DNA of 64,000 nucleotides, taken from the IMG/VR virus record IMGVR_UViG_3300037067_026753; one strand, written 5' to 3'. This DNA comes from a virus. Position numbers and translations under genes: made by a program. The first letter of the stretch is position 1, and every line of letters starts with the position of its first letter. A model generated the notes under the pieces. That model was not told the DNA's origin. It searched no databases and saw nothing but the letters and a program-made list of their open reading frames with translations. Shown here piece after piece: positions 15,855 through 58,550 of the stretch.

Positions 15855-15876
15855 ACATTCCTCGATATCTAAAATC
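15855..15876 (+). promoter_or_regulatory. leaderless-type promoter: CTCGATATC, 7 nt, then ATG
   Basis: Top-strand copy of the GATAT core 7 nt before the ATG of 15877..16218. Confidence 0.4.
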
Positions 15877-16218
15877 ATGATTACCGACCTGACAATCGAC
15901 ACTTCTTCTGATTTAGACAAATTTATTGCTCTCTACAACAGAGTTGGCATCAAACCCGAATTAGAAAAACACGAGCATGGTACTAACCTTATGCTTTCTG
16001 TTCCTAATATAGTTTCCAAACGCTCGAAAATACAAGGCCATGCAGGGTTCTACACCATTCTATACTTTGACATAAATGGCAAATTCAAATATCAAGAAAT
16101 CAAAGAACCAGCTACCAACAAAGTCGCTCTTTATGATGCTTTTGTTGCGGGACGCAGTTCTATACATATGTCATATCCTGATTCAGTTGCATTCGATAAA
16201 TGGTGTCATCATGCATAG
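15877..16218 (+). CDS. hypothetical protein
   Basis: Intact ORF. Confidence 0.45.
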   Translation: MITDLTIDTSSDLDKFIALYNRVGIKPELEKHEHGTNLMLSVPNIVSKRSKIQGHAGFYTILYFDINGKFKYQEIKEPATNKVALYDAFVAGRSSIHMSYPDSVAFDKWCHHA

Positions 16219-16983
16219 CAATACTATGCAAGTCACACCCTTGGCAACTCTTTCAATTAGCATCGATTTAAGCTGCTATGTTAAACTATGACCTGCTCCC
16301 AGACCATATCATTGCACGTATGGTAGTCATTATCGGCCAACCAGGCAAACACATCAAACAATTGGTGCGCCACCATACAGGGCACACTATAACCATAGCT
16401 CCTAAGTACTATAAACGGATTTTCAACAAAGCCCGTAGCCACCTTAAAGCGCACCACTACATAGTCATTGACACCTGGCCCAAATTACTAACAGAACGTG
16501 TTTAAACACTATGCAAATCACGCCCCTAATTTTAAAACAACAAGGGTTTATCCCGACTACCTTAAAAAACATATACTCAAAAAGAGTACACGAACTCATT
16601 TTTCTCGAATTCGATATGAATGATTGCTTTATAACTATTGTCAGAATGCTCGAAATACCGAAAGCAAGACGGGACAACATCTGTGACAGGCACAAAATAG
16701 TGTTCCCTCAAAAAATAGACACAATTTCAAAACTCAATCAAGTTGTAGCTGTTTTTACTGGTAATTGGTAACTTATGCAAACACAGTTGCTCAAAGTAAT
16801 TGCTAATCGGTTTGCTATTATTATGTGGTAGACTTTCATGTCCAGTCTGGTGGCTCATTACATTTGAAGACGAAGAAATCAAAAAATTAGCCATTGATCT
16901 CTATACAAGACATAAGCTAGAAATAGATATTGGTGTTGCAACATTACTTGCAAAACGTTTTGTACGAGAAGGAGAATAATTAT

Positions 16984-17235
16984 ATGCGTAAAATCTATTT
17001 ACTCATTACAATTGCATTGCTTATAGCCTGCACAGACCCTAAAGGCACCATACAAATACTTACTAAACAGGGTTACAAAAATATAACCATTACAGGCTAC
17101 AGGCCTTTCTCATGCTGGAAAAATGACCTAGCTACAGGGTTCACAGCCACAGACTCCAATGGCTTTTATGTCACTGGCTGCAATTGCTACAATGTCCTAA
17201 CTGGCTCACGTATCAAAATAGACAAACACAAATAA
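16984..17235 (+). CDS. small lipoprotein
   Basis: Signal peptide with lipobox LIAC. SD gaaggagaa precedes the ATG at 16984. Confidence 0.5.
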   Translation: MRKIYLLITIALLIACTDPKGTIQILTKQGYKNITITGYRPFSCWKNDLATGFTATDSNGFYVTGCNCYNVLTGSRIKIDKHK

Positions 17236-17320
17236 GGCCTAATTAACACTAAAAATTACAATTACAAAAAATTAATTATTTACTGTGTTTATCATAACAC
17301 ACCCCTAAAAAGGAGTTGTT

Positions 17321-17911
17321 ATGCATAAACATGCGGCCCATTGTACTATTTGCAACATACTTGGCAACACAAACATAAACGTGCGACATACACGTGCCCA
17401 AACTAAACAAGGAGGCAATGACGACATGCTCGCACAACTAAAAACACTACTACCCAACAACACCACTGTCACACCATCAATCAACGATTCTTACAAAATC
17501 GACTTTGACAGCCTTATTACCATTGACAAACACCTCAAAACACTACAACAAAAACTACCAGACTACACAGTACGCCACGTACCTAGCACGCTCTATGTCG
17601 TTGTAGAACCCAAAATAAAACAAGAAACAATTAACCTGCCATTCGAACTCACAACTGCACATGGCCACCTTGATACTGAAACCCTACGCAAAATACAAAA
17701 ACACTTGTATGACACGTCAACAAACAAAGCAGACTTGCACAAAAATGTGCTCCACTACTTCAAACACATACCTAACCTACGCGAATCCTTTGAACACTTT
17801 ATCATAACTAAACAACCCGCAAACAAACACACACCCGAAAGACTAGTTGATCATTTTATTTGGGACATATCAAAACTAGAAACAAACAAAAAAAAGAAAA
17901 AGTTTGAATAG
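17321..17911 (+). CDS. hypothetical protein
   Basis: SD aaaaggag. The coding strand is A/C-rich. Confidence 0.45.
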   Translation: MHKHAAHCTICNILGNTNINVRHTRAQTKQGGNDDMLAQLKTLLPNNTTVTPSINDSYKIDFDSLITIDKHLKTLQQKLPDYTVRHVPSTLYVVVEPKIKQETINLPFELTTAHGHLDTETLRKIQKHLYDTSTNKADLHKNVLHYFKHIPNLRESFEHFIITKQPANKHTPERLVDHFIWDISKLETNKKKKKFE

Positions 17912-17943
17912 TAATGCTCCTCGATATATAAAGTAAAAACATA

Positions 17944-18438: not shown

Positions 18439-18477
18439 AAACTCTCCTTTTGTTGTACAAGAGTTATATCGCTTGTT

Positions 18478-18723
18478 TTACTTGTACCTGCCAATTAGCT
18501 GGTCGTAGATTTGTACTGCTTCATAGAGCCCAATGTTTGTGGCAGTGCGCAAGCTTTTGACAAATTCGAGTTTCGTTGGAGCTGGGGTTGACATTAACCA
18601 GTCATCGGCATATTTTCTGGCTTCGTCGAAAGTGTATGTTATCTTGAGTTTTTTCAAGATGTCATCGTCCGGGTATCTTGTCAAAAGAGTGTGATGTTGT
18701 TCCGAAGTTAAAATGACGTACAT
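18478..18723 (-). CDS. cassette gene, hypothetical (start MYVILT)
   Basis: Promoter/SD element at 18725-18790. Confidence 0.5.
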   Translation of the reverse strand: MYVILTSEQHHTLLTRYPDDDILKKLKITYTFDEARKYADDWLMSTPAPTKLEFVKSLRTATNIGLYEAVQIYDQLIGRYK

Positions 18724-18859
18724 AAACTCTCCTTTTTGTTGATAGTAAGTATATCGCAAGTAAGGAGAGACACTGCCCGCAAACCGACTAGCATAAAACA
18801 AGTTAGGGCCCATGTAATATATAGGCCCTTGGCTTGCGGTGTGCTAAACCAGGTCGCTG

Positions 18860-19297
18860 TTAGGTGTCGCTGGTTTCGTCATAATGAATGGTGAAGGAGA
18901 TTGTCAGTTTTTTGTCGTCGAATTTGAAGTTGGTGTAGTAGGAGTCCACAAAGCAGTCATCCCTGCCATGGTAGGTGAAATCGAAGTACCGCAAGTCATC
19001 CCAGTATTCCCGGACTGACATGTCTTTGGCAGCGATCTTGACGCCCTCGGACGTCTCATATTCCCGGTGTTCCTCGGTGGGATTGTCGTAGGCATGCTTG
19101 ATTTTGTCGTAGAGTGCCTGGTCACAGCCAAAGGTGATTGTCAAGCCCTCATTTTTGAGATCGCGGAGTTCCGGCAGTTTGTTGGGCAAGCGGTTTTTCC
19201 AGTTTTTGGTTTCGAAAGCTTTAAGGGTGAGGTCGGTGATTACCAATGACTTGAGTTTCTTGGACTTGACCGTGACCGTTTTCTTGCTGATTTCCAT
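18860..19297 (-). CDS. cassette gene, hypothetical (145 aa)
   Basis: Element TTGGCA-N18-GATATAATT...AAAGGAGAGAG upstream. Confidence 0.55.
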   Translation of the reverse strand: MEISKKTVTVKSKKLKSLVITDLTLKAFETKNWKNRLPNKLPELRDLKNEGLTITFGCDQALYDKIKHAYDNPTEEHREYETSEGVKIAAKDMSVREYWDDLRYFDFTYHGRDDCFVDSYYTNFKFDDKKLTISFTIHYDETSDT

Positions 19298-19375
19298 ACC
19301 CTCTCTCCTTTGTTAAGTGGTTTTTCCTTTGATAGTAATTATATCGCAAGAAAACAATCTGATTGCCAAAAACAA
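19298..19375 (-). promoter_or_regulatory. cassette promoter with 5' leader (representative copy)
   Basis: Minus strand reads TTGGCAATCAGATTGTTTTCTTGCGATATAATTACTATCAAAGG...AACAAAGGAGAGAG then ATG. Confidence 0.6.
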
Positions 19376-19413
19376 AACGGGGCCCGTAGGCCCCAGGGTG
19401 AAGGGAAAGCGCA

Positions 19414-19785
19414 TTAGGCAGTTGCCAGGGCGGTGGTGTCGGCGGCCGGTGCTTTGGCAGTTTTGGTCGTCTTCTTGCTGCTTTGCTTGAAGTATTTCGC
19501 CAGGATCTTGTCGAGGTCAACCGTGTCCTCCACACCGGCGATGATTCCGCGGACGCTGCCGAGGTGGCATTTCTCGATCTGTTCACCGGTGTACGCCTTG
19601 ACCCGGTCCCCGAGTTCCTTGAGAACGCTGGTGACTTCCAGGGCTCTGCCTTTGAGAATCGCTTTCTTTTCGCCCCGGACGAAGGTGATGCAGGTTTTCT
19701 TCGCGATCATTTCGACACCGGCCGGCAGCGTGACTGCGTTCACTGCAATTGCGTTGGTGTTGGCGGTTGCGGCTTTCTTGCTCAT
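19414..19785 (-). CDS. small basic protein, paralog of 22742..23026
   Basis: The core …VTLPAGVEM…ITFVRGEKKAILKGRALEVT…IEKCHLG… is shared with the paralog. Own promoter element at 19790-19850. Confidence 0.55.
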   Translation of the reverse strand: MSKKAATANTNAIAVNAVTLPAGVEMIAKKTCITFVRGEKKAILKGRALEVTSVLKELGDRVKAYTGEQIEKCHLGSVRGIIAGVEDTVDLDKILAKYFKQSSKKTTKTAKAPAADTTALATA

Positions 19786-19842
19786 AGAAACTCCTTTGAA
19801 AAGGTTGATTGATTTGTTGTTGATAGTGATTATATCGATTGT

Positions 19843-20004
19843 TTTACGCCTGACTGCCAGCCTGTGTTTCGCTCTCTGCTGGCCTATTGTCAATTGCCAT
19901 GTCAGCCAAGAAAGAGATAAGTTGTTTTTCAGCTTGTTCTCTCTTTCTGAACCTGTCAAAGATTGCTTGTTGCTTGGGACTTGCTTTTTTATATTTGCGT
20001 TCCA
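19843..20004 (-). CDS. small ORF (MERKYKK…, about 54 aa)
   Basis: SD AGGAGGAGGA and an upstream GCGATATGA. Not in the ORF track. Confidence 0.3.
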
Positions 20005-20048
20005 TGTGAATCCTCCTCCTTCATATCGCCAGAAGAGAAAAAGGCTGC

Positions 20049-20237
20049 CTAATTGGCAGCCTGAGTACGCTGGTCAAGCCGTATTGCGCTGGGGAATTCG
20101 ATTTTCGGCGTGGTGCCCCGGGCAGCCATGATTGCGGCTTTTTCAACCTGGAACTGCGCCATTGCCAACCGGATGCTCTCTTCGATTTCACGGTTGCGCA
20201 TACGTTTCGGATATAGGGTCCTGGTTACTTCAGCCAT
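20049..20237 (-). CDS. cassette gene, hypothetical (MAEVTRTLYPK…, 62 aa)
   Basis: Element CGCGATATAGTAATTG...AACAAAGGAGAGAAAATG. Confidence 0.5.
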   Translation of the reverse strand: MAEVTRTLYPKRMRNREIEESIRLAMAQFQVEKAAIMAARGTTPKIEFPSAIRLDQRTQAAN

Positions 20238-20367
20238 TTTCTCTCCTTTGTTGAGTACAATTACTATATCGCGGGTTTTTAGTGGGCTTGCCAAATCAGC
20301 GCGGGCCCGACGAGCAAACACAAAGCTCCCACCTATAGGTAACCTATGGGCATGAGCTTGAATGTGC

Positions 20368-20647
20368 TTAGGGATTGTACCAGAACACTAGGATAAAGGT
20401 ATAACCGGTTTGAGTTTTGGCGAAGTTTTCGATGCCATAGAAGTCGATCGAAGATCTGCCAAGGTCATTGTCCTCGAGGAAATCGAGCACATTTTCTTCG
20501 CTGAGATCATTGGCAGTCGTGAGTTTGACCGGGACTCTTGACTTGTCGTTCTCATCCCGGATATCGATAATTTCTTTGGCTTTCAAATTTCTGGCAACTT
20601 GGTACAAGCTCGGCAGACTGGTAGCAATGATACCAGAAAGCGTTCAT
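20368..20647 (-). CDS. cassette gene with a frame inconsistency
   Basis: The SD-associated ATG at 20647 opens a 31-aa frame. The long 79-aa frame (20368..20607) begins with TTG in another frame. Confidence 0.3.
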
Positions 20648-20673
20648 TAACTCTCTCCTTTGTTGTGCAATAA

Positions 20674-21003
20674 CTATATCGTTGTCAGGTCCAGTGGCTG
20701 CCATAGTTCGATTTGTTCGATAGCCAGTTGCAAGTCAGCCAAGTTTTTGATTTGACCCTCCCACTGGAGTATTGGGCTTATAGGGTTCAACTTGAACCCA
20801 TGGATCGAATGGATTCTGCCACTCGGATAAATGACAAAGTCAATCTCCTCATCGTTGATTCTGTCATATATGGTGGCAAAAATTGAGGGTATGGTAGAGT
20901 CGCTGTCTTGGTGGTCAAGAAATACAGCTGTAAACCGTTTGGGCAATATGGCAGCCAGGGTTTCTTTTGTGAGAATGTGCATGTGCGAATTTAAGACATT
21001 CAT
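20674..21003 (-). CDS. cassette gene, hypothetical (109 aa)
   Basis: Intact ORF with an AAGGAG region upstream. Confidence 0.45.
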   Translation of the reverse strand: MNVLNSHMHILTKETLAAILPKRFTAVFLDHQDSDSTIPSIFATIYDRINDEEIDFVIYPSGRIHSIHGFKLNPISPILQWEGQIKNLADLQLAIEQIELWQPLDLTTI

Positions 21004-21064
21004 GGTGTCATTTTCTCCTTGTTAAGCGTAATAACGTAAGGGGGCGGTTTGACCGCCAACCCTT

Positions 21065-21130
21065 AGCCCTCAATTGCTCCAACGCCCATGAGCACCAGAA
21101 TGCCAACCAAGTAGATCCCCATAACCATAA
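21065..21130 (-). CDS. 21-aa hydrophobic micro-protein (MVMGIYLVGILVLMGVGAIEG)
   Basis: Has its own complete promoter/SD cassette (CACGATATCAAC...AACAAAGGAGAGAGTT then ATG). Confidence 0.35.
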
Positions 21131-21436
21131 CTCTCTCCTTTGTTGTGGTGTAGAGTTGATATCGTGCGTTTTGTGTTTGGCAACCAACACAGTTTCGGGC
21201 GATATAGTTAATACTGCTAAACGGCGAGGGCTTGTGCAGGGAGATCGGGGTAGTGTATTTGCTAAACTTGCTTGCTTACGCGTTATACGCTCTTGTACTT
21301 GCATACGCCTGCGCTTGTATACGCACTATAGCGCTTATAAAAACAAAAAAGGTAGGAGCCAAAGGCGCCCTGCCTGGGCACTCATTGGCTACCTACCAGT
21401 TAAAGGAGAGAGAGATTTTGAGGTGAATTTCGCTTG

Positions 21437-21805
21437 TTATGCGGCTGCAATTTTTTCTCTGGCAGTCATGACTTTTGCAGCCAAGTCCGTGAACCGAGTT
21501 TCTTCCTCAGCAAGTTTCTTTTTATATTCAGCTTCGATCGCTGCCATGCGATCAGCATGATCTTGATGAACATCACCCGCATGCTCAATCAAGTCATAGG
21601 CAGAGTAGATATCGTCAGCGTAAGCGCTGTAGCCCATGCCAGGGCCTGAGCGGCTCAACTTGCTGTGTGGCACGTTGACAAGTACGATTCTTGCCTTAGA
21701 GTACTTTTTGCGATCATTGGCAATGCGCGTCTTGACTTCTTCTTTGTCAGATGAATAGATGCCCGTGAAATGCAGGCCTTGAGCGTGTGCTTGTTGTTCG
21801 TTCAT
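21437..21805 (-). CDS. cassette gene, hypothetical (start MNEQQAH)
   Basis: Element at 21806-21850. Confidence 0.5.
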   Translation of the reverse strand: MNEQQAHAQGLHFTGIYSSDKEEVKTRIANDRKKYSKARIVLVNVPHSKLSRSGPGMGYSAYADDIYSAYDLIEHAGDVHQDHADRMAAIEAEYKKKLAEEETRFTDLAAKVMTAREKIAAA

Positions 21806-21834
21806 AGTTTTGCTCTCCTTTTGTTTGATAAGAG

Positions 21835-22242
21835 CTATATCGAGCGTTTCCGGCATGCATGCCATTGATCAATTGCTTTTTGTACGCTGTTTGGCATGCT
21901 GTCTGCCAGTTCTTCGTCATTCATTACCATGTCAAGAGCATCTTCGGCAGCTTTGAGTCTTGCTTTATCAACTGCAAGACATTTTCGTGTCTCATCGCTT
22001 GATGGCTGGAATGTATTCCCTTCATCACCAACTTCAATAAGGCCTTCATGGATCAAGCCGGAAAGCTGTGTGGCAATTTCATACATTTCACATTCCATAC
22101 CCTGTGACTTCAGGTAGGAATAAATCTCTTTGGCAGTCACTGGCGCCACAGCATAGATATACTCTTTGATAACGGACCTTCGAATTGCAAGACCCTTGTT
22201 TGCTTGTATTTCTTCAGCAGTCTTTCGAATTTTCTTATCCAT
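21835..22242 (-). CDS. cassette gene, possible winged-helix protein
   Basis: Element CTCGATATAGCTTCTATCACCAACAAGGAGAGAAACG then ATG. Confidence 0.5.
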   Translation of the reverse strand: MDKKIRKTAEEIQANKGLAIRRSVIKEYIYAVAPVTAKEIYSYLKSQGMECEMYEIATQLSGLIHEGLIEVGDEGNTFQPSSDETRKCLAVDKARLKAAEDALDMVMNDEELADSMPNSVQKAIDQWHACRKRSI

Positions 22243-22481
22243 CGTTTCTCTCCTTGTTGGTGATAGAAGCTATATCGAGCGTTGAGCGGGCTTTGCCAAA
22301 TCGCGTTTGAGCAAAAGCATACTTTGGTGTATATAAGGCCCTGCATCACTTGTAACGGCGCAATTGATGGCGACTTGCAGCGGGACACGGCACATTCTTG
22401 CATAGTCTCTTGCCCAGTTCATTGCCATGGCTTGAGTTTTTCTTCGCCTATTTGTGCAATCCATTCAAGATCAAGTTGAGC

Positions 22482-22631
22482 GCTCATTGTCTGCCCTCTT
22501 TCTTGAGGATTGCATGCAAGACATACAAGTCGATTATTTCTCTGTTGAGTTGACGTACTTGTTCAGTCACGCCAGCTTTTTGTACTACGTGGAGCAGTTT
22601 GAGTTTTGATTCGATTTGAAGTTCAAAGTTC
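22482..22631 (-). CDS. small cassette ORF (49 aa, MNFELQIES…)
   Basis: Element at 22632-22670. Below the ORF-track size cutoff. Confidence 0.35.
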
Positions 22632-22741
22632 ATACTTTATCTCCTTGTACTGACTATATCGAGAGCAAAAGCACAAGCCGCCATAAAACAAAAAGAGCCC
22701 TGGAGTTAACCAGAGCTCTTCCTGCCCGTGGAATTGGCAGC

Positions 22742-23026
22742 TTACTTGTAATAGGCGGCCAGGATTTTGGTCAGGTCGATGGCATCGGCCACGCCACGGA
22801 CGACGCCCTTGATCGCGCCGAGGTGGCATTTTTCGATGATTTCCTCGGTGTACGTTTCGATGCGCTTGAGCGTCTTGGGCGTGTTGGTGACTTCCAGGGC
22901 CCGGCCCTTGAGCACCGCTTTCTTTTCACCGCGGATGAACGTGATCGCGGATTTGCCGGGTTTCATTTCCACGCCCTTGGGCAGCGTAACGGCATTCAGG
23001 TCAATGGCGGCAACTGCTTTACTCAT
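22742..23026 (-). CDS. small basic protein, paralog of 19414..19785
   Basis: See the paralog entry. Confidence 0.55.
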   Translation of the reverse strand: MSKAVAAIDLNAVTLPKGVEMKPGKSAITFIRGEKKAVLKGRALEVTNTPKTLKRIETYTEEIIEKCHLGAIKGVVRGVADAIDLTKILAAYYK

Positions 23027-23159
23027 AGTAACTCCTTGAAAAGGTTGTGTTCCTCCTGATAGAGGTTATGTCGCATGTTTTTGCAGGACCTGCCAATGTA
23101 CTTACTTGTAGTATTGCTGCTACGCGCGTATAGCGCGCACGCAAGCGCTTGAGCACAAA

Positions 23160-23218
23160 CAAAAAAGGTAGGGAGTTACAAGGGTGTTGAGCACCCATTG
23201 GCTACCTACCATGTGTAT
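23160..23218 (-). terminator. intrinsic terminator (repeated element, copy B)
   Basis: Minus strand GGTAGGTAGCCAATGGGTGCTCAACACCC...CCCTACC followed by TTTTTTGTTTGT. A near-identical copy lies at 21350-21405. Confidence 0.55.
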
Positions 23219-23379
23219 TAAGTTAGAAAGAAGAATTCGTCCAGCGAACTTGCAGTGTTGAGAGCGATTGCCAGATTGAGAAAGTCTTCTTGGCCAATTA
23301 CTGTGTCACGGTCAGGCCGTCCACCCAGGAACGGGATACTTACTGGTATCTGGTATTTTGTTTTTTGTGTGCGTTCCAT
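23218..23379 (-). CDS. small cassette ORF (53 aa)
   Basis: Element CTCGATATAGTTTTTAACAACTAACAAGGAGAGAGAGTT then ATG. Confidence 0.4.
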   Translation of the reverse strand: MERTQKTKYQIPVSIPFLGGRPDRDTVIGQEDFLNLAIALNTASSLDEFFFLT

Positions 23380-23552
23380 AACTCTCTCTCCTTGTTAGTT
23401 GTTAAAAACTATATCGAGAGATTTTGAGTAACTACCAACATAGCTACGACTGTGCGTAGCACAACAAGTCGTTATTATATATTGTACCATTAAGTGTAGT
23501 GCAATAAAACAGCGCTGGGCCCCGTAGGGCCCTTGGCTGTAAGGAGAGAAAG

Positions 23553-24197
23553 TTATTTGATATAAGGTTTGGATTTGCCACAGAGTGCCCGGAGTTGTGC
23601 CACATTGGCAGCATTGCCGGCAATTTTGTAGAGCCGTTCATCGAAACCTTCCTTCAGTTCGTACTTCATGACCGTCTGGAAGAACTTGCTGAAGTTGGCA
23701 CCGAGCAATTTTGTCAGCTCTGCTTTCAAGACAGCATCCTCGAAAACTTCGGGTTTGAGGGTGACAATCGGTTTTGTCTTGACTTCGACAGCGAACTGGT
23801 CGCCGAGCAAGACCTTGAGTGTGTCGATTGCGTCGGTTGAAACTGAGAACTTGTCCTGGGAGATGAAGGTGGCTTTCGTCTTGCCGTCGTCGCTCAGTAC
23901 TGAATAGGACCCGGAAAAATCGCCTGCAAGGCCGTCGGTATCCTGGCGGTTCAAGCAGAGTTCCAGCAGGGGTCCTTCCTCGGACCGGAAGGTACCTTCG
24001 GCGGCTTTCATTTCGCGTTTGGCTTTCAGCATTTTCTCCAGTTTTGCTGACTGAGCCGCATCCAGCTTGATGACAGGTTTTTTGTCCTTGGATTTGACGG
24101 CATCCGGGGAAATTGTGGATGTGCCGACCATTTGTTCGAATGACAGATCGGTATTTGCCGTTGCAACGGCAACTGGATCTGCTTTTCTTTTGGCCAT
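23553..24197 (-). CDS. cassette gene, hypothetical (214 aa)
   Basis: Element with GACATAGTG...AAAGGAG. Confidence 0.5.
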   Translation of the reverse strand: MAKRKADPVAVATANTDLSFEQMVGTSTISPDAVKSKDKKPVIKLDAAQSAKLEKMLKAKREMKAAEGTFRSEEGPLLELCLNRQDTDGLAGDFSGSYSVLSDDGKTKATFISQDKFSVSTDAIDTLKVLLGDQFAVEVKTKPIVTLKPEVFEDAVLKAELTKLLGANFSKFFQTVMKYELKEGFDERLYKIAGNAANVAQLRALCGKSKPYIK

Positions 24198-24339
24198 AGA
24201 AACTCCTTTGGTTAAAGTACGTTCACTATGTCGCTCAATTTTGGCTGGGCTGCCTTGAAATGTTTTCTGTGTTCGTGACAGTAACCCATGATATCTCTCC
24301 TTGTTAGAAGCTATATCGTGAGTTTATACTGTTTTGCCA

Positions 24340-24555
24340 TTAATGCGGGCAGTCACATTGGGGCCCAAGTAAAGAGGAGCATCTTGGGCAAAGGACAATG
24401 TCTTTGAAATACTCAATGACAAGCAAGTCGTCGTCAAGTGGCAGGAAATTGTCGAGGATAATCTCTTGCACTCGGTCAACAGTTTCTTCATTGAGACCCA
24501 GCTGGTTTATAACGGCTTCAGCTGTTTCCAGTAAAGTATCAGCTACATTGCTCAT
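24340..24555 (-). CDS. hypothetical protein (start MSNVADT); second gene of a two-gene cassette
   Basis: SD GGGAGATG. No promoter element of its own. Confidence 0.45.
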   Translation of the reverse strand: MSNVADTLLETAEAVINQLGLNEETVDRVQEIILDNFLPLDDDLLVIEYFKDIVLCPRCSSLLGPQCDCPH

Positions 24556-24643
24556 AAACATCTCCCTACCAGCATGCCGCCGATAAAAGCAACTGTGCTG
24601 CACATAACAAGTATGAGCAGCAAGTATTTTGCTTTTGGGTGTT

Positions 24644-25051
24644 TCATTTGCCCGACCTGCAATTGGCATTACTTCGTGTTTTTTCTTCTTCTTTGAAGTT
24701 GATGCTCAAGCCATCGTTAGGCATGGTCAAGTTCGCTTCCGTGCCGCAAGAGCAAACATAACGCATTGAACTCACACGGCCATTACCACCGCCGCCTGTA
24801 CTCTCCATGTTTTTATGGCATTTGGGACATTTGATCTTGATGAAGAGTTTCATGACGTCGAAGATACTATTACAAGTCGAGTGCCAGTCGATGTCGTGTT
24901 TGGTCATGTACTGGATTGCTTCGACTCGATAATTATCTCGGGTAGCATGTTCGAAGAAGTCACGTTCAATGAGTGCTGTCTGATCAACTTCGAGTTCGCC
25001 TAACTGCAGGCGTACACCGGGGCATTTTTTCTGAAAATCTTTGAGTTTCAT
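24644..25051 (-). CDS. Zn-ribbon/zinc-finger protein
   Basis: CPKCHKNMEST…CSCG Cys clusters. Element at 25052-25110. Confidence 0.5.
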   Translation of the reverse strand: MKLKDFQKKCPGVRLQLGELEVDQTALIERDFFEHATRDNYRVEAIQYMTKHDIDWHSTCNSIFDVMKLFIKIKCPKCHKNMESTGGGGNGRVSSMRYVCSCGTEANLTMPNDGLSINFKEEEKTRSNANCRSGK

Positions 25052-25239
25052 AATGGTTTCTCTCCTTTGTTACTAGCTATATCGTGCGCTGTTGAGTTAC
25101 AGCCAAACAAAGCTCCCCGCATTTTACGTTTGGCATGTCTACCGGAGTTTCCGAAGTATTTGAGTACTTGGGAAACTCCGCATGCCGCCCCAACCAGCAG
25201 AATGGCTGTTGTGCAAGGGAGCTTTGTTAAGCTGCCTTG

Positions 25240-25590
25240 TTATTTATCACTCAGCAACATGTAAGCTGCCATTACTTTATCAAACATTGCACGATTCTTA
25301 TCATTGGCGTTACTGGCATCATGAGAAAAATTGTCTTGCCGGTATTTGAGCACCAGTCTAGCCATTGCTTTACGGATTTCAGTAACGGTGGCAGTTTCAG
25401 ACACGCCCAAAATAATGTGAGGAGATTCTCCATGCTGGAGGATCTGAAGCGCTTGTTCTCGGCTCATTTTTATGAAATTGAATGCTTGCGCCCATTGCTC
25501 TGGGTTGCCAGCTTCACCGTTGTATGTACCGTAGGGTGAAGAGTCTTTCCAGATATTGCGCTTTGGTTTGCCGGTTCTGGTTCGTGGCAT
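25240..25590 (-). CDS. J-like domain protein (degenerate DnaJ J-domain without HPD)
   Basis: HIILGVSETATVTEIRKAMARLVLKYRQD resembles the J-domain YYEILGV…IKKAYRKLA..YHPD, with the HPD motif replaced. Confidence 0.45.
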   Translation of the reverse strand: MPRTRTGKPKRNIWKDSSPYGTYNGEAGNPEQWAQAFNFIKMSREQALQILQHGESPHIILGVSETATVTEIRKAMARLVLKYRQDNFSHDASNANDKNRAMFDKVMAAYMLLSDK

Positions 25591-25650
25591 GGTTATCTCT
25601 CCTTGTTAGTAGCTATATCGTGGGTTACTGTTTGAGTTGCCGGTATTTCC
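25591..25650 (-). promoter_or_regulatory. cassette promoter with 5' leader (representative copy)
   Basis: Minus strand CACGATATAGCTACTAACAAGGAGAGATAACC then ATG. Confidence 0.6.
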
Positions 25651-25867
25651 AATTGGAGTAGTTGAACTCCAACTTGAGCGTTTCCGGGAGCAACCTGAAC
25701 GTTTGTGTTGTCAACATGGGTACATTTGCACTGTCTTCAAGCCGTTGAGCAACCAGTAGCAAGTCGTGTACCCTTGAAAGTTGCTCAGGGGTGTACTCTT
25801 CCGGAGCATCCATGTCCGTACAACCAAGTTGATCGCCATCTTTTTTGGGTGTAATTTTGTTTGCCAT
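25625..25867 (-). CDS. cassette gene, hypothetical (start MANKITPKK)
   Basis: Element at 25868-25900. Confidence 0.5.
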   Translation of the reverse strand: MANKITPKKDGDQLGCTDMDAPEEYTPEQLSRVHDLLLVAQRLEDSANVPMLTTQTFRLLPETLKLEFNYSNWKYRQLKQ

Positions 25868-25911
25868 ACTCTCTCCTTTGTTAGTAACTATATCGTGAGC
25901 TACAGAGAGAG

Positions 25912-26289
25912 TTACCGAGTGTAAGCAGGCAAGTTTGCAGTCCACTCTTGAGAGTCAGTCAACTTAGACAAGACCGCGAAAAATATGTCATCATAGACTT
26001 CCAGGATTTTCTTGCCCAGTTTTGTACGCAGTTTGCCAGCGTATTTGAACTTGCCCTCGTCCGTGAATACATACACGGTTTCTTTTTCTGTCTTGACGAC
26101 AAACCAGGAAATGCTGTGGTGTTGTTTTTTGAAGAACGATAACGTACCAGTAGTGGTGCCGTCCGAAATACTTAATGCGCCCTCGACTTGCTGTGGATTG
26201 GCTTCAAGATTATCTGCTATAGCTCGTGAGGAAAGTTCTTTATCTACGGCGCTCAAGGCAACTGTTTTGGGAGCCATTACCCTTACCAT
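25912..26289 (-). CDS. cassette gene, hypothetical
   Basis: Element TGCGATATTGATGCATGTAATAAGGAGGTTCT then ATG. Confidence 0.5.
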   Translation of the reverse strand: MVRVMAPKTVALSAVDKELSSRAIADNLEANPQQVEGALSISDGTTTGTLSFFKKQHHSISWFVVKTEKETVYVFTDEGKFKYAGKLRTKLGKKILEVYDDIFFAVLSKLTDSQEWTANLPAYTR

Positions 26290-26424
26290 AGAACCTCCTT
26301 ATTACATGCATCAATATCGCAGAAACTCAGTAAAACTGCCACATAGCTACGACCCAGTGTAGCACATACAAATAGAGCCACAGGTAGACCCATGGCCCTC
26401 AATTACTTGTTGTGTTAGTCCGGC

Positions 26425-26739
26425 TTACGCTGCATGAGCGATGGCGAGTCTGGGTGCCGCAATTGCCGGTGCAGTTTTGATAGCATCTTCGAGTCGTGAG
26501 CGCCCGTATTTGCGACCCTTAAGGCCCATGGAATCAAGATGTTTGCATGAGCCATGACGGATATTGCCCCGGCAACTGCACGTCCAGTAGCCGCCGGCTG
26601 AATCGAAGGAAACCCGGTAAAGCGAATTGCTTGACTGGGACCGCACGTTGAAGCGGCATTTGTATCGGCTGTCATCCGGGAATGTTTCAACTGCGGCTGC
26701 CGGCACCAGGTAATTGGTTGTTGCTATTGCGTTGTTCAT
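26425..26739 (-). CDS. SWIM-type zinc-finger protein (paralog A)
   Basis: CSCRGNIRHGSCKH fits CxCx9CxH. Confidence 0.5.
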   Translation of the reverse strand: MNNAIATTNYLVPAAAVETFPDDSRYKCRFNVRSQSSNSLYRVSFDSAGGYWTCSCRGNIRHGSCKHLDSMGLKGRKYGRSRLEDAIKTAPAIAAPRLAIAHAA

Positions 26740-26795
26740 AACTCTCTCCTTGTTATTGGTGTAATAGCTATATCGTGAGTTATGTAACAACTGCC

Positions 26796-27080
26796 TTACA
26801 GGCCAAAGGTTTCAAGCGCCTTTATTACCGTTGCACAGTCATTGGCGTTGTAGTCAAGTGAGCCTTCAATGTCGGCAGCCAGAATCCGGATGCAATCATC
26901 GATCAATTCGATTTCTTCAGGAGTGCTTGCATAGGCGCTCTTGTTTTCTGAGTAGCCGTGGTAGAATTCCTGCAAGCAATGTTCGTTGGGATCGAGTTCC
27001 TGCCAGTCGCTCTGTTCGGCTTGCTTCGAAAAGTGGTCAATCACGTGGAGTTCGAGTTCGGTACGTTCGTGTGCGTGCAT
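26796..27080 (-). CDS. acidic small protein (start MHAHERT)
   Basis: Element TTGGCA-N17-CGCGATATAATTCTTATCAACAAAGGAGAGAAAACA then ATG. Confidence 0.5.
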   Translation of the reverse strand: MHAHERTELELHVIDHFSKQAEQSDWQELDPNEHCLQEFYHGYSENKSAYASTPEEIELIDDCIRILAADIEGSLDYNANDCATVIKALETFGL

Positions 27081-27430
27081 TGTTTTCTCTCCTTTGTTGA
27101 TAAGAATTATATCGCGAGTAGCAATTGGGTTGCCAAACAAAACAACAGCCATTGAGCTAAAACAAGTTGAGGCCCAGCCAACATTGCTTTTTGGTTGACT
27201 GGAGCCCCGATTCGTAGTAATTCGACCGACGCCGGTTTGTTCAACGGTGGTTTAGAAAACTCTTGCCTTAAAGGAATCCGGTTGGATACCCTTGCGGCAC
27301 CAGCCGCAGTACGATGGTTCGCGTCGGTTTGGCGTCGATTCGGCTGCAGGGGACCAGAGCCACCGCGGCGGTTGCCAGCGTCCTGGCAATCATTCGGATA
27401 GTCTCGGCCGCGTTCTGGCGATCATCGATA

Positions 27431-27484
27431 ATAAAAAAACCATTCAACATTTCGCGGTCCCTCTCGCCGATTGTTCAGAAATGG
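27431..27484 (-). terminator. intrinsic terminator inside a GC-rich non-coding gap
   Basis: Minus strand CCATTTCTGAACAATCGGCGAGAGGGACCGCGAAATGTTGAATGG followed by TTTTTTTATT. Confidence 0.5.
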
Positions 27485-27624
27485 CCCCTCGGGTTTTTTT
27501 GCCGGTACCCCGGGGCGTTGTTTTGTACCTTATTAATATCGAGTGTTTAGTTTTTGACTGCCTTAATTTTTTTTAAAAAAACGTTTGACCATTATACGCT
27601 CTTGCTGCGCGTCCATATCTCTCC

Positions 27625-27996
27625 TTAAAAGAAAAACGCCATTACTTCTTGCGGCGTTGTAGTTGCTGTCATGATTTTTTCGATATCAATAACGTCCTGC
27701 GGTTTATATCGTATGTTTTTCTTATCGAGCCAAGCTCTTATTGCATCCATACGAGATTTTTTCATGGCACCAGAGAATTCTGTCCGATTATATGTGGCAG
27801 CAATTTGAGCTTCAAGATTGTTAAGAAAGCCTTTTTTCTCTGCTTGGCGGTAGTGTCTGCACAACTTGCGGAACCCAAAGCCCTTGCATGAACAACTGTC
27901 GTGAGTTACTTTGTATGTGTGCCCTGAGCCAGAGACGCACTCGACGTACCCTTGCTTGAGGGTAAATATGTCGGGTCCTTGTGGTTTATAGCCCAT
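27625..27996 (-). CDS. SWIM-type zinc-finger protein (paralog B)
   Basis: SCSCKGFGFRKLCRHY fits CxCx9CxH. Element at 28000-28030. Confidence 0.5.
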   Translation of the reverse strand: MGYKPQGPDIFTLKQGYVECVSGSGHTYKVTHDSCSCKGFGFRKLCRHYRQAEKKGFLNNLEAQIAATYNRTEFSGAMKKSRMDAIRAWLDKKNIRYKPQDVIDIEKIMTATTTPQEVMAFFF

Positions 27997-28040
27997 AACA
28001 TCTCTCCTTGTTAAAAACTATATCGAGAGTTTTTTGGGGG

Positions 28041-28213
28041 TTACCAATTACCTTCATTCATTAAAGCAACAAGACGCTTTACTTTTGTAACCGGCAACCC
28101 AACTTGTTTTGCCCATTTTGCAGCTGGCACTTTGAAAACAATATTGCTTTCATTTGCTTTTTTAGTTGCCATGAACAACTTGAAAAGCTTGTATTCTTTT
28201 TCTTTTGCAGTCA
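28041..28213 (-). CDS. small basic protein (start MTAKEKEY); second gene of a cassette
   Basis: SD AAGGACTGG. Overlaps the stop of the upstream gene. Confidence 0.4.
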
Positions 28214-28215
28214 TA

Positions 28216-39568: not shown

Positions 39569-39570
39569 AA

Positions 39571-46024: not shown

Positions 46025-46031
46025 GTGTTAA

Positions 46032-49038: not shown

Positions 49039-50142
49039 TTAAAAAATTCCGTTGTTGAGCGTTTCGATTGTTTCAGTGCGTGTTTTCCATTCGTATTTCC
49101 CCGTTCTAGCTATTGATATGTTTCCTATTTCAAATGGAGTAGTTTGGGCGTTACCTATATCGTTGGATTTGCTCCTTGTGACCATGGAAATTTTTATTGC
49201 GCGTACTGTTTTCTTTTTGGCAACTGATACACTGTCGAGCCATACAAATTTGCCGTAGTCCTGGCGTCTTACTTCAACACCATTGAGCATAAGTTGCCCT
49301 GAACTTTTTGTCCAGTATCGTATGGCAATTTTTCCTGTAGACGTTGCTTGCGTGTTGATTGTCAGGTGCTGGACGCGATTAACAGGCAGGAATTTTTCCA
49401 CGCCCTTGTTTACTGTACTGTTGACAATACAACATTGTAGCGAATCGAATATTTTGTCAGATACAATATCCAGTGCGACATTAAGGCGTTGGTTGGTGTC
49501 ATTTGCAAATGATGTGTTGTAATAGATCATCCCTCTGCTTATACCAGAGAAATCGAACCGAACAGAGGAGCCTACGACTGTTGCTGTTGGTGTCGCACCG
49601 GATTCTGAGGCAATCAACCAGTTGCCGGGGATAGGTATCGGGTTCAAGTCCTGGAGCATCGAATCATTGGCAAATACTCCATATTGAAATTGTAGTCCTT
49701 GTACGTTAGCGCAAAATCGCAATTTCTGATTGTTGAGTTTCCTTATAAGGTTGTTCGAATCCAAATAGAATTCAACCGAGTCGGTCCGGACGTATTCACC
49801 GGTTTCTGACAGTTTTGCTTTGTAAATTTTCAGAGTGTCACTTGGGTCGCCCTGGCGTGCAACAAATGATGATGAATCCGCGATAAATGCGTTCGAAACA
49901 AGGTGTTTGTCGAATTTGGTGCCGTTGGGCGTCAGGTAGAATTTGCAGCCCATGTTGCGTATTTCGCGTACAAGGACGACAAGTGCATCTCTTGCATCGA
50001 TCTGCATTTTTGTCATTTGCTGGGTTCTGTTGCTACTCTTGGTTATGTCGGCATAGGATTTGTGCCAGAGTGAAATGACGATGCCGAAGATTACAATGCA
50101 GATCAGCAGTTCGATAATTGAAAGACCTTTTTGGTTGTTCAT
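49039..50142 (-). CDS. type IV minor pilin (PilW-like) with a class III (prepilin) signal
   Basis: MNNQKG|LSIIELLICIVIFGIV: Gly at -1, Glu at +5, hydrophobic helix. Confidence 0.6.
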   Translation of the reverse strand: MNNQKGLSIIELLICIVIFGIVISLWHKSYADITKSSNRTQQMTKMQIDARDALVVLVREIRNMGCKFYLTPNGTKFDKHLVSNAFIADSSSFVARQGDPSDTLKIYKAKLSETGEYVRTDSVEFYLDSNNLIRKLNNQKLRFCANVQGLQFQYGVFANDSMLQDLNPIPIPGNWLIASESGATPTATVVGSSVRFDFSGISRGMIYYNTSFANDTNQRLNVALDIVSDKIFDSLQCCIVNSTVNKGVEKFLPVNRVQHLTINTQATSTGKIAIRYWTKSSGQLMLNGVEVRRQDYGKFVWLDSVSVAKKKTVRAIKISMVTRSKSNDIGNAQTTPFEIGNISIARTGKYEWKTRTETIETLNNGIF

Positions 50143-50465: not shown

Positions 50466-50520
50466 GGTGCCTCCTACGTTAATTTTTGGTGAAGTTTTTT
50501 TCCTACAATGAGAGATATCG
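50466..50520 (-). promoter_or_regulatory. promoter of the pilin operon, using the same CACGATAT core
   Basis: Minus strand GCGCACGATATCTCTCATTGTAGG...GTAGGAGGCACC then ATG. Confidence 0.45.
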
Positions 50521-50567
50521 TGCGCCCGGGTGTAATCTGCCAACTATATTACATAGAACAGTGAGAA

Positions 50568-53231: not shown

Positions 53232-53937
53232 AAAACCTCCATTTTGGGGATATGGAGTATATCGTATAAGTTTTTAGAACTGCCACCTTAATATCTTTCT
53301 TGGTAGTAAAGAACTTTCATTGATTCGAGCGCTTTATTATTTTTCTCCAAGTATCCCTTGAAATTTTATATTTGAAAAAACAAACATCATTGTCATTGCC
53401 GAATGCAATGACATCGTCTGATTCGACTATAATTGGAATTTGTATAAAATCATTACTATCATTTATCATAGTTCTTGAGGTGAAAGCATGAATTGCGCCT
53501 TGATAGATCATATTGCCACGCTATACCAAAAACTCCTTTAGCTCGTATGAAATCTTGTGTATTTAGTTTTATCAGCTCATACTGATACCATGTACAAATA
53601 CCTCCTCTAGAAAGATGAAACCATTTCCAGAAAGTCAATTTTGCTATGTTTTTTTGTTTTTATTCTGTTTACTGTAAGGCACATAGAGTCAGTTAGAATA
53701 GGCTCGAGCACAACAAAAATATTTCATAATAGTATTATTCAATCCCAATACGGGGCTCAAATTTGTCGCAAATTTGGTGCCAATAAACTGTTTGGTCTTG
53801 ATCTAAATCGCAAACACTCCAAGCATATTCATTTTCAGCATGTGTGCAATTGAAACAACATCGAGCTTCTCGTAAATTCATATCTCGTAAATTCATATTA
53901 TATTTTATATTCAACTCAAACTAATATAAAAAGAAAT

Positions 53938-56370: not shown

Positions 56371-56385
56371 ATAAACCTTTCTAAT

Positions 56386-56982
56386 TTATTGACATAGGAT
56401 TCCACTCTTTACGAAAGCTTTATCAAGTTTCTTGAGCTCTATATGGATTTTTTTGTCGATATCTTGCCATGTCATCCCTGTCAGTTCAAAATATATTGCT
56501 AAACGTTCTTCTAACCATGCTTTCTTGTCAGGAACTTCATTAAAGGAAGGAACACCGTGGTATCTGTCAGCTAAAGACTTAAAACCTACGTCATCAACTA
56601 TACAAGACTTATATTTGTCTGGGATCTTGTTCCAAATTGTTTTCACAAATATCGGGCATTTTTCATTACCATCGTATATGTAATAAGGAACTTCTCCAAC
56701 ATTTTTTATTTTTATTGTCTTACCTATCTTTATAGCCATCCATTTGACTACAAGAAAAATGTAATCTCTTTCTGGTTCGCAAGCATTGTAATCAAAACCG
56801 ATAGCATTTTTCCTGTGATCATAAGACAAGCCTGTAGAATCTGCTATGTTTATTGCTAGTCGCGAATAATTATCTTTTTGATTGAATAATTGTGCAGGTT
56901 CTACATAGTGCTCCTGCAAAAATTCCCACATTTTAAGTAAGAGGACTTTGTTTTTTGCAATGCAAGAAATGCTATATCCCAT
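56386..56982 (-). CDS. hypothetical protein (198 aa); third gene of the ATPase module
   Basis: 3-nt gap to the upstream gene. Confidence 0.45.
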   Translation of the reverse strand: MGYSISCIAKNKVLLLKMWEFLQEHYVEPAQLFNQKDNYSRLAINIADSTGLSYDHRKNAIGFDYNACEPERDYIFLVVKWMAIKIGKTIKIKNVGEVPYYIYDGNEKCPIFVKTIWNKIPDKYKSCIVDDVGFKSLADRYHGVPSFNEVPDKKAWLEERLAIYFELTGMTWQDIDKKIHIELKKLDKAFVKSGILCQ

Positions 56983-56984
56983 TG

Positions 56985-57422
56985 TTACACCTCGACATAA
57001 ACCGAATGCGTGAATTCTGGTGCCCTGACATCAGGCACGTCTTTAATTGTCATACCCAGTCTGACAGCAATTACGACTTCACCATCCTTATCAGACCATG
57101 AAAGGATTCCTTTTTTATATTCAAGGTCGTCTATAGGACCAGAACATTTGGAACGAAATTTTCCATTTTTTTTGCATTCTACGACAAGTTTCTCTTTTCT
57201 TCTGCTTATAACTTCAGCAGCAATTAGATATTCTTTTTTCGTTTTCGAAACTGCTTTCTTGATTGGTTCGCATTTCACAATGAAGTAATTCTGGTGAGTG
57301 AAAACTTTCTCCATGACATCTTCTGCTTCTTTAAAAGTCATGGGGTCATTGCCTACGAAATGCAGTTTGCCATTATACTTCCACATGATAGCATAGAAAG
57401 GTTTCATATTCCCTCCAATCAT
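56985..57422 (-). CDS. hypothetical protein (145 aa); second gene of the ATPase module
   Basis: ATGA overlap with the ATPase gene. Confidence 0.45.
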   Translation of the reverse strand: MIGGNMKPFYAIMWKYNGKLHFVGNDPMTFKEAEDVMEKVFTHQNYFIVKCEPIKKAVSKTKKEYLIAAEVISRRKEKLVVECKKNGKFRSKCSGPIDDLEYKKGILSWSDKDGEVVIAVRLGMTIKDVPDVRAPEFTHSVYVEV

Positions 57423-58075
57423 TTATTGCTTGCCTTTATTAAAGCTGCAATTTCATCGTATACTTTTTCGTTTCTTGCAAAAAGATCTTCAAGATTACCA
57501 GGTTCGTCAACAGTATTAAGCCAAGTTTTAAGATCAGAACAACCACCAACCCGGAGATGAGACGGATTCAAGGGAAGTAACTGACGGATCAAAGGCTTGC
57601 TGTGAGAAATAACAACAACAACAACACCTTTTGTCAGAGCCGGAAGGTTTTCGACAAATTCTTTTATTTTGACACCAACAGCACCAGAATATTTCTCGCT
57701 GAGCCCAATATCAAGCTCATCCCAAATAATATAATGTTCGTTTTCTCTTTTCTGGCAATTTTTAATACCATTGACTACGGTTAATGCAGTCAGATAACCA
57801 GTAGAATTGTATGACTCATCACCATATATCATAGCAGAAGGAATGCCTGAAGAGCTACGCCCTTGTTGCGAAAGATGTATTACCTCGAGCTTCATTTGTT
57901 TTAAAATGGTGTAGTAAATACGACGGACAAAAGATTTTCCAGTAGCATTTTCTCCGGTGACTACGACAATGTCTTTGTGCCCAGGGTCAAAGTGTGTGTT
58001 TAAAGGACCATTGAGACAAGCGAGCTCACACATATCCGTAGTTAGAGCCACCATGTTCTTGGTTGAGTATTTCAT
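57419..58075 (-). CDS. small P-loop NTPase (ABC/AAA_21-like minimal ATPase)
   Basis: Walker A VTGENATGKS. Walker B YIIWDELD. Possible Q-loop (SQQ) and H-loop (ISHS). Leaderless-type promoter CGATATAAACCGT then ATG. Confidence 0.55.
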   Translation of the reverse strand: MKYSTKNMVALTTDMCELACLNGPLNTHFDPGHKDIVVVTGENATGKSFVRRIYYTILKQMKLEVIHLSQQGRSSSGIPSAMIYGDESYNSTGYLTALTVVNGIKNCQKRENEHYIIWDELDIGLSEKYSGAVGVKIKEFVENLPALTKGVVVVVISHSKPLIRQLLPLNPSHLRVGGCSDLKTWLNTVDEPGNLEDLFARNEKVYDEIAALIKASNK

Positions 58076-58550
58076 ACGGTTTATATCGTATTAAATAGAC
58101 TACTCAACCAATATATATTGTTTTTTAAATAGTTTCGCTAGAAGCCTGAAGAAAATGTTTTCTTTAGAAAATACAATGTCCGCAATATCTTTTCATTTTG
58201 CTATAATTTTCTCATATTCTTCGTCAGACAAACTTGTCCAAAGTAATTCGCCTGTTTCTTCGTCTACTAAGTTCCAGTGACTAAATTCGCCATTACCAGT
58301 AAATTCTTCATGTAATTTGGGTTTCATTTTTTATCTCCTTTATTTACAGCACATTTTTTACACCACATAGCCACTATGCATAATTCTCCATCAAGATCAG
58401 AATGTTCTTTCATTGTTTTGCCTGATGTGTATAACGAAACAAACTTGCCACATTGTTCACAGTTCATTGTAGATTTATTCTTCATAGAGGAATTTATATC
58501 TTTTCTAAGGAACTGTTATTATAATTAGTTCACAAGGAGAAAAACAAAAC

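Follow-up and report, generated by a model that had tools for sequence, protein, structure and literature searches.

A two-box TTGGCA/CGATAT element in front of genes of a likely huge phage, and its probable role as a promoter with a non-canonical -10 box

The stretch of DNA considered here, referred to as the window, is 64,000 nucleotides (nt) in length and comes from IMG/VR virus record IMGVR_UViG_3300037067_026753. It contains a 22-kb island of mostly small genes, and a short word, CGATAT, recurs in front of genes both inside and outside this island. A preliminary description took a GATAT(A/C/G) core to be the host's -10 box, used genome-wide and in places set so close to the ATG that the mRNA would be leaderless. 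The locus raises the question of what this element is, what reads it, and whether the island and the surrounding genome share it. All six CGATAT sites cited in that description are present where it placed them.

The window has 70 copies of CGATAT, where dinucleotide-preserving shuffles give 20.4 ± 4.5, and 147 copies of GATATV against 76 ± 10.5, which bears out the proposed enrichment of the core. When the context of each copy was printed, nearly all intergenic CGATAT copies were found to carry T(T)GGCA 16 or 17 nt upstream. CGATAT is the downstream half of a two-box motif, T(T)GGCA-N16/17-CGATAT(A). The GATAT word first described is real; the description was incomplete in that the -35 box, TTGGCA, was overlooked. 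In the aligned sites, the spacer is 17 nt long at 42 sites and 16 nt long at 17 sites, and its information content is approximately zero. Around the -10 box, C is somewhat favored at positions -5 and -2 ahead of CGATAT, and A followed by G downstream of it. CGACAT, CGATTT, CGAAAT, and GGATAT are also seen as -10 variants where the -35 box is good, and the conserved core is therefore CGA-y-A-T.

A two-block matrix was trained on 35 island sites only and applied with a score cut-off of 12 or more. The DNA scanned was 82.4 kb in length, composed of the window, 9.6 kb of left flank, and 8.9 kb of right flank. The flanks were taken from other assemblies whose overlap with the window is 100% identical. 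There were 61 matches, where 2.2 were expected from shuffles. Approximately 20 of these lie outside the island (about 1.6 expected), some of them beyond both window ends, and nearly all are directed at a gene start. That a matrix trained on the island alone finds these sites agrees with the earlier proposal that one promoter serves the island and the genome around it.

The tabulation of the motif relative to gene starts, which had been suggested as a check, gives the same picture. A site is present on the sense strand within 110 nt upstream of 15 of the 123 predicted non-island genes. For the same genes, the antisense strand gives 3 and an equal-sized window inside the gene gives 1. A model-free count of 7-mers in intergenic DNA outside the island ranks CGATATA first in enrichment once Shine-Dalgarno words are set aside, with 7 copies against 0.86 expected. 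The idea of genome-wide use holds insofar as sites exist outside the island; as a general -10 box the element does not qualify, since only about 12% of non-island genes have one. This coverage fits operon heads or one temporal class. The plus-strand gene block at 40.2-47 kb has no TTGGCA/CGATAT promoter in the motif scan. Consensus sites of the form TTGACA-N16-18-TATAAT are not enriched in the left flank (66 vs 69.7 ± 8.6) or in the island (36 vs 27.4 ± 5.5). The two-box element is the only clearly enriched promoter class in the stretch that was read. A literature search for the motif itself returned nothing relevant.

The non-island sites can be sorted into two classes using the distance from box to ATG. 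In one, the ATG is 17 nt or more downstream and has a Shine-Dalgarno sequence. In the other, the ATG is 7-9 nt downstream and has none. The short class has six genes: those with ATGs at 15877, 58075, and 39774, one behind a CGACAT site in the left flank, 4.4 kb from the window, and two behind weaker variants, with ATGs at 16278 and 6047. Five of the six ATGs are gene starts called independently in other assemblies, where approximately 0.1 chance coincidences are expected (about 174 starts in 165 kb of strand). The short geometry pointed out in the preliminary description is a real and separate class at 7-8 nt, and it is kept in relatives for two genes. The case for leaderless mRNAs is made by the tight clustering at 7-8 nt, the agreement with gene starts, and this conservation.

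From the sequence we infer a transcription start position, the leaderless status of these genes, and the identity of the sigma factor discussed below. The predicted start lies 7-8 nt beyond the final T of CGATAT, which amounts to placing GATATN at positions -12 to -7. In at least four to six genes, transcription would then begin on the A of the ATG or 1-4 nt before it, and the mRNAs would be leaderless. Such a class would be unusual for a phage whose other genes have strong Shine-Dalgarno sites.

Relatives were sought in several collections. A scan of IMG/VR with the pattern TTGGCAN{16,17}CGATATAG gave mostly single chance matches and one true relative, IMGVR_UViG_3300048599_000816 (194,595 bp), which has four pattern matches in two adjacent stored pieces. 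In this record, of which 44 kb was read, positions 2.8-36.1 kb are syntenic with 19.3-39.8 kb of the window, with protein identities of approximately 45-79%. In the first 34 kb read, the matrix gives 43 matches at a score cut-off of 10, of which 41 are on the gene strand, and the same leader, CGATATAGTTACTATCAACAAGGAGAGA, is present. Fourteen orthologous promoter pairs show 80% identity in the -35 hexamer, 95% in the -10 heptamer, 45% in the spacer, and 50% in the first 14 nt of the leader, a comparison that is biased in that both members of each pair were picked as matrix matches.

The arrangement at 39787 (CGATAT, 7 nt, ATG) is found exactly in the 195-kb relative, where the N-terminus reads MKRKRRW.KEYR and the translated alignment begins at this ATG. 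The second conserved case is the ATPase-like gene with its ATG at 58075. Upstream of this gene, the 195-kb relative has ATGGTA-N16-CGATAT, 11 nt, ATG, and a 466-kb JGI contig (L140, Ga0672870_0000001, 466,459 bp; 28% GC, 60% protein identity) has TTGGCT-N17-AGATAT, 7 nt, ATG. Three more sites of the AGATAT type are near the latter, one of them also leaderless in arrangement. The motif, its enrichment, its orientation, its distances, and its conservation are the part of this analysis that we count as established.

Further afield the motif is missing. It was not found in the 50 kb read of LR756500.1, the best rIIA relative (462 kb, 23.5% GC), in other huge phages of 26-27% GC (L275 and L276), or in contigs L142 and L144. 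Scans of IMG/VR proteins with three window proteins gave no match, as did a first cassette pattern, and no relative of a 587-aa protein was present in GTDB representative genomes. The cassette promoter has 48 scattered single matches in 185,579 species-representative genomes (GTDB), which is estimated to be about the chance level. A JGI scan with an alignment of the ATPase returned 80 loci, 62 with a readable upstream region, and only L147 among these has the motif. A second regular-expression match, L222, is a GC-rich chance match, and the others are distant, mostly GC-rich homologues. The absence from distant homologues and other huge phages, together with the chance-level count in genomes, indicates the promoter code of a narrow phage clade.

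The window most likely derives from a phage whose genome measures at least 424 kb, and it is not a piece of cellular chromosome; the preliminary description, which spoke of a host, needs correction on this point. The figure is that of the longest contig with these exact proteins (424,144 bp); relatives are present in IMG/VR. Landfill-leachate or digester samples (JGI 3300014205, ERZ27247358/63) contain the phage. The phage identity is graded as likely rather than proven and draws on accessory hallmarks. The island has strong PHROG matches to rIIA and rIIB, and its other products include FtsK-like, DUF932, and DnaJ-like proteins (Pfam/PHROG). The products encoded on either side of the island include homing endonucleases, a glutamate-receptor-like potassium channel, PspA, a Na/Ca exchanger, pilin-like proteins, and a lipase, and most open reading frames (ORFs) are small and without a family. 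Just outside the window are NADAR and NAPRTase genes and, within 10 kb of the window ends, the genes of ribosomal protein bS21 (contig L012, 3247-3462) and of an RtcB RNA ligase interrupted by an intein (contig L008, 13331-15724). Both bS21 and sigma factors are carried by huge phages (PMC7162821; PMC7824862). A nucleotide search of GenBank phages gave no match.

The same proteins are present in a GenBank metagenome-assembled genome (MAG), GCA_028717785.1, labeled "Candidatus Nanoarchaeia archaeon", on contigs JAQUND010000007.1 and JAQUND010000040.1 (L008 and L016). This archaeal label is most likely a binning error and the MAG probably contains huge-phage contigs, because the DNA has a bacterial bS21, strong Shine-Dalgarno sites, and phage genes (rIIA/rIIB and homing endonucleases). 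The closest cellular homologues of the Na/Ca exchanger, with 57-60% identity, come from Desulfobulbia, Rhodospirillales, Methylococcaceae, Thiobacillus, and Rhodocyclaceae. Their occurrence in Desulfobulbia and several Proteobacteria is a hint of a Gram-negative host.

Taken by its behavior, CGATAT acts as a -10 box, as first suggested: it is biased in strand and position toward gene starts, has a -35 partner at 16-17 bp, and is kept in relatives. CGATAT(A) is probably the -10 element of a promoter of the sigma-70-family type, with a phage-specified alternative sigma factor as the most likely reader. That the element is a promoter at all can be held with good to high confidence, and the assignment of its reader to a phage-specified sigma stands at an even balance. 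Recognition by a sigma-70-family factor is argued by the two short boxes, the free 16-17 bp spacer, the strict co-orientation, and the fixed short distance to the leaderless ATGs.

In the mechanism proposed here, the RNA polymerase holoenzyme would contact both boxes. The island would be an array of single-gene cassettes, rIIA and rIIB included, in which approximately 40 genes each have their own copy of the promoter and a leader of about 15-35 nt carrying AAGGAGAGA. Elsewhere, the same promoter would head operons. The sigma factor that reads it would be encoded by the phage outside the 82 kb read. T4-like jumbo phages are a precedent in that they have no RNA polymerase of their own and encode sigma factors (PMC7824862).

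Two further promoter types were tried and rejected. A sigma-54 promoter (TGGCAC-N5-TTGCW) does not match, as nothing is conserved 4-6 nt after TGGCA and the partner box is 16-17 nt away. A promoter of a T7-like single-subunit polymerase would be one contiguous block of approximately 20 bp, where two short boxes with a variable, unconserved spacer are found instead.

Several points, in addition to the selection bias in the paired promoters, weigh against the assignment to a phage-specified sigma, against leaderless starts, or against the phage identity. No sigma gene was found in the window among 110 ORFs searched by Pfam, among 20 candidates searched to an E value of 1, or with PHROGs, and the gene tables of the 18 kb of flanks contain none. 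The preliminary description had looked to the island as one possible home for an altered sigma factor; none was found by these searches there or in the rest of the window. The rIIA/rIIB genes and the many small ORFs look early; if they are, a phage sigma would need to be injected or made first, which favors a host factor over a phage-encoded sigma. A loose test for leaderless genes (an ATG ORF of at least 50 aa at 6-11 nt) gives 4 sites against 1.45 expected, which is not compelling alone. Finally, no capsid, tail, or terminase gene is present in the 82 kb read.

The alternative that survives best is that these are early promoters read by the host's primary sigma factor, in a lineage whose consensus is TTGGCA-N17-GATATA and not TTGACA-N17-TATAAT. 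Of the 6 positions of TTGGCA, 5 agree with the primary-sigma -35 box TTGACA, and taking GATATA as the hexamer gives a spacer of 17 nt. The island genes are of an early type (rIIA, rIIB, and small ORFs) and stand at the promoter density of an early region, and the failure to find a phage sigma in the window and flanks by Pfam and PHROGs points in the same direction. GATATA lacks the near-universal T at -7, however, and the scan of GTDB genomes gave no lineage that uses the motif above the estimated chance level. The Desulfobulbia, Rhodospirillales, Methylococcaceae, Thiobacillus, and Rhodocyclaceae, from which the closest cellular homologues of the exchanger come, have ordinary promoters. To our knowledge, primary-sigma promoters have no counterpart to the invariant CG just upstream. 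We regard this alternative as improbable. The ordinary primary-sigma -10 box, TATAAT with A at -11 and T at -7, was itself rejected as a candidate: the best register of the element, GATATA, has A at -7, CG is invariant upstream, and the consensus scans show no enrichment.

A less probable alternative, which we consider quite unlikely, is that the flagellar sigma-28 (FliA) of the host is borrowed, with a phage factor that re-targets the -35 contact, as in the appropriation by AsiA/MotA of T4. Promoters of FliA in E. coli have the form TAAAG-N16-CGATAA/T (GCCGATAA), with variants CGACAT and CGAAAT (PMC4183435 Table 2). Those promoters share with the sites here the -10 core CGATAT/CGACAT/CGAAAT and the N16 spacing from the upstream pentamer. 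Every site has TGGCA in place of the -35 TAAAG, however, and the base before CGATAT is never C, where FliA promoters have GCCGATAA. A motility sigma is off in many hosts, which would make it a risky dependence for a phage, and no appropriator was identified. The last alternative, that the repeat is a protein-binding or recombination site delimiting the cassettes, or a repressor or regulator site, could draw on the high uniformity of the island element and its continuation into the conserved stretch AGNTNNTA..AACAAGGAGAG, but it is very unlikely given the lack of dyad symmetry, the strict co-orientation with the downstream gene, the two boxes at 16/17 bp with a free spacer in the style of sigma promoters, the fixed distance to start codons (including the 7-8 nt class), and the presence of the element before operons outside the cassette array.

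The probable phage-specific promoter can be compared with known systems. It resembles promoters of sigma-28 (FliA/SigD/WhiG, group 3) in the -10 core CGATA(A/T), the same variants, the distance to a 5-nt upstream box, and the bipartite form. It differs in the -35 box, which is TGGCA and never TAAAG(TTT), in the bases before CGATAT (C then A/G/T, where sigma-28 has GC), and in the genes served (dozens of phage genes as opposed to a motility regulon). The late promoters of Bacillus phage SPO1, which depend on gp33/gp34 with gp34 as the phage sigma, have the form CGTTAGA(N17-19)GATATT (PMC3601020). They are likewise a phage-specific class, and their -10 box GATATT is almost identical to the GATAT(A) found here. 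Their -35 box CGTTAGA is unrelated to TTGGCA, the spacer is 17-19 nt compared with 17-18 nt here (measured to GATAT), and they serve late genes, where those here are of the rIIA/rIIB type and small accessory genes. The window yielded no gp34-like gene.

Promoters of extracytoplasmic function (ECF, group 4) sigma factors, such as TGAAAC-N16-CGTATA for SigW of B. subtilis, also have a -10 box that begins with CG 16-17 bp after a short -35 box; this likeness is from comparison of consensus sequences only. The -35 box here lacks the AAC signature, and the -10 box has CGAT and not CGT(A/C). A dense one-strand array of promoters before small genes and rIIA/rIIB recalls the early region of phage T4, whose early promoters differ in being of the sigma-70 type with TATAAT, for which consensus sites are not enriched here. 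Leaderless phage mRNA is known from the lambda cI gene transcribed from PRM. As in that case, the start codon is at the predicted transcription start and there is no Shine-Dalgarno sequence; the differences are that several genes and an unusual promoter are involved here and that the leaderless status is deduced from geometry and conservation only. Overall, the element is a real and well-defined class of probable promoter with a non-canonical -10 box, of a kind that is already known, the phage-specific sigma-type promoter.

The island array extends over 18465..39811 on the minus strand and has 41 sites with a score of 12 or more, each of the form T(T)GGCA-N16/17-CGATAT(A). At these sites, AAGGAGAGA and the ATG follow, mostly 21-46 nt after CGATAT. 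Genes with a site of their own include rIIB (28711-29796), rIIA (30683-32860), those of the DUF932 protein and the FtsK-like protein, and approximately 35 small ORFs. A full-consensus site at 21177..21206 (score 26.7) is on the opposite, plus strand inside the island. It forms a back-to-back pair of full-consensus promoters (21200 on the plus strand, 21164 on the minus strand) and may drive an antisense or divergent transcript. Tandem pairs of promoters 55-85 nt apart occur at 38505/38421 on the minus strand and, in the left flank, at -9092/-9035 on the plus strand.

The leaderless-type sites are as follows. TTGGCA-N17-CGATAT at 15840..15869 on the plus strand is 8 nt before ATG 15877, with no Shine-Dalgarno sequence. 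This ATG is the first start of its ORF and agrees with the independent gene call in contig L003; the gene is 15877-16218 (113 aa). TTGGTT-N17-CGATATA at 58082..58111 on the minus strand is 7 nt before ATG 58075, also with no Shine-Dalgarno sequence. The latter ATG is the first possible start of the ORF of the P-loop ATPase-like gene, which leads seven co-oriented genes down to 54766. The predicted ATPase (57419-58075, minus strand) belongs to a conserved family of approximately 220 aa that is found on many phage-like metagenomic contigs. The family has a Walker A motif, GENATGKS, and a Walker B motif, (I/L)WDEPDIGLS, and matched no Pfam family. TTGGCA-N18-CGATATG at 39781..39811 on the minus strand is 7 nt before ATG 39774. 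The gene that begins there comes first at the island's right-hand edge and encodes a 67-aa basic, cysteine-rich protein.

Two weaker variants complete the short class within the window. TTGGCA-N17-CGATTT at 16241..16270 on the plus strand has a low score of 7.5 and is 8 nt before ATG 16278 of a 75-aa gene, an ATG that agrees with the gene start called in L003; it is of the leaderless type. TTGGCA-N16-GGATAT at 6010..6038 on the plus strand (score 9.4) is 9 nt before ATG 6047 of a 159-aa gene, which has a gene call in L008, and is near-leaderless. Exactly at 6185/6186, the match between the window and contigs from another sample (L001 and L010) ends, a sign of a structural variant, a repeat, or an end of the genome at this place.

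Four sites on the minus strand have longer leaders or distances. The site TTGGCA-N17-CGATATC at 50514..50543 (score 23.8) is separated from ATG 50465 by a leader of 49 nt that contains GGAG. This site heads a pilin-like operon (47447-50543, minus strand) that encodes type IV pilin-like proteins, with an N-terminal methylation motif and a PilW domain, in a phage context; the N_methyl/PilW protein is at 49039-50142. A matrix match inside the PilW-like gene, at 49156..49185 on the same strand, has a poor -35 box (ATGGTC) and is probably a chance or internal site. GTGGCA-N16-CGATATA at 53258..53286 precedes a GGAGG ribosome site with ATG 53231, and TCGGCA-N17-CGATATA at 60736..60765 precedes AAGGAG with ATG 60696. 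TTGGCA-N17-CGATATT at 63526..63555, upstream of ATG 63482, was absent from the earlier list.

The remaining sites are variants. TTGGCA-N17-CGACATA at 17361..17390 on the plus strand precedes AAGGAGG and an ATG that lies 36 nt downstream. TTGGTA-N17-CGACAT at 12055..12084 on the plus strand precedes a 33-aa ORF and the gene of the Na/Ca exchanger (12253-13242). TTGGCA-N17-TCATATA at 7390..7419 on the minus strand is upstream of gene 7361-6987, and an amber-suppressor tRNA (6985-6913) lies directly downstream of this gene on the same strand. The tRNA (6913-6985, minus strand) has the anticodon CTA and is labeled tRNA-Pyl by ARAGORN. Stop codons of the predicted non-island genes are 57% TAA, 26% TGA, and 17% TAG. 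As TAG still ends approximately 17% of these genes, there is no wholesale recoding. A weak and uncertain candidate, GAGGCT-N17-CGGTAT, is at 3124..3153 on the minus strand, 58 nt upstream of the PspA-like gene. A DUF7487 endonuclease is also encoded, of which no second copy was found on the 424-kb contig.

The preliminary description further argued that the island is adapted to this genome and is not a recent foreign arrival. The common promoter and the synteny in the 195-kb relative speak for the island as a module native to the lineage of this phage. In the relative, the island is followed immediately on the right by homologues of window positions 57.4-58.0 kb (ATPase-like), 58.5-59.1 kb, and 60.9-61.6 kb, that is, the same ATPase, phosphatase, and lipase homologues. 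From this synteny, the island and its right-hand neighbors are ancestral to the lineage, and 40-57 kb of the window is variable or inserted DNA. The argument is secured only in part, since a common promoter code is also compatible with acquisition from a related phage and the GC content of the island is 47% (45-48%) compared with 33% in the flanks. In the relative, the orthologous island has only 34-40% GC. An exchange of the module with a GC-richer phage sharing this promoter code would agree with both the native promoter and synteny and the GC content.

The 40-57 kb region holds iteron-like repeats, a G-rich block on the plus strand, and the pilin-like operon. Approximately six of these direct repeats (TCTTATAGCTGTTCAG and variants) are clustered at 40070-40210, in the gap that separates the minus-strand island from the plus-strand block, and the cluster may be a replication origin. 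The block at 40218-46847 on the plus strand has an extreme GC skew of +0.35 to +0.43 and encodes a NikA-like protein and a methyltransferase. The block and the DNA up to approximately 57 kb are missing at the syntenic place in the 195-kb relative, and the block may be an inserted mobile element.

A broader and tentative possibility is that a small clade of uncultured phages larger than 400 kb depends for much of its gene expression on a private code, TTGGCA-N17-(C)GATAT. This code would be read by a divergent phage sigma with a FliA-like -10 specificity and a new -35 specificity, would give rise to leaderless mRNAs whose translation may be helped by the bS21 of the phage, and would serve as a compatibility tag for modules. 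If this is true, the clade would consist of the phage of the window, the 195-kb IMG/VR contig, and the 466-kb JGI contig with AGATAT, and the sigma would be too divergent for Pfam or PHROGs. With the tag, whole modules such as the 47%-GC island could pass from one phage to another even where the base compositions are very different. A sigma encoded by the phage, if this is what reads the sites, would form a naturally orthogonal pair with its promoter. Promoters of uncultured huge phages are essentially unmapped, and the element provides a testable consensus with approximately 60 instances that is conserved in relatives. This consensus is a handle on the organization of transcription and operons in these phages and can serve as bait for the matching sigma factor.

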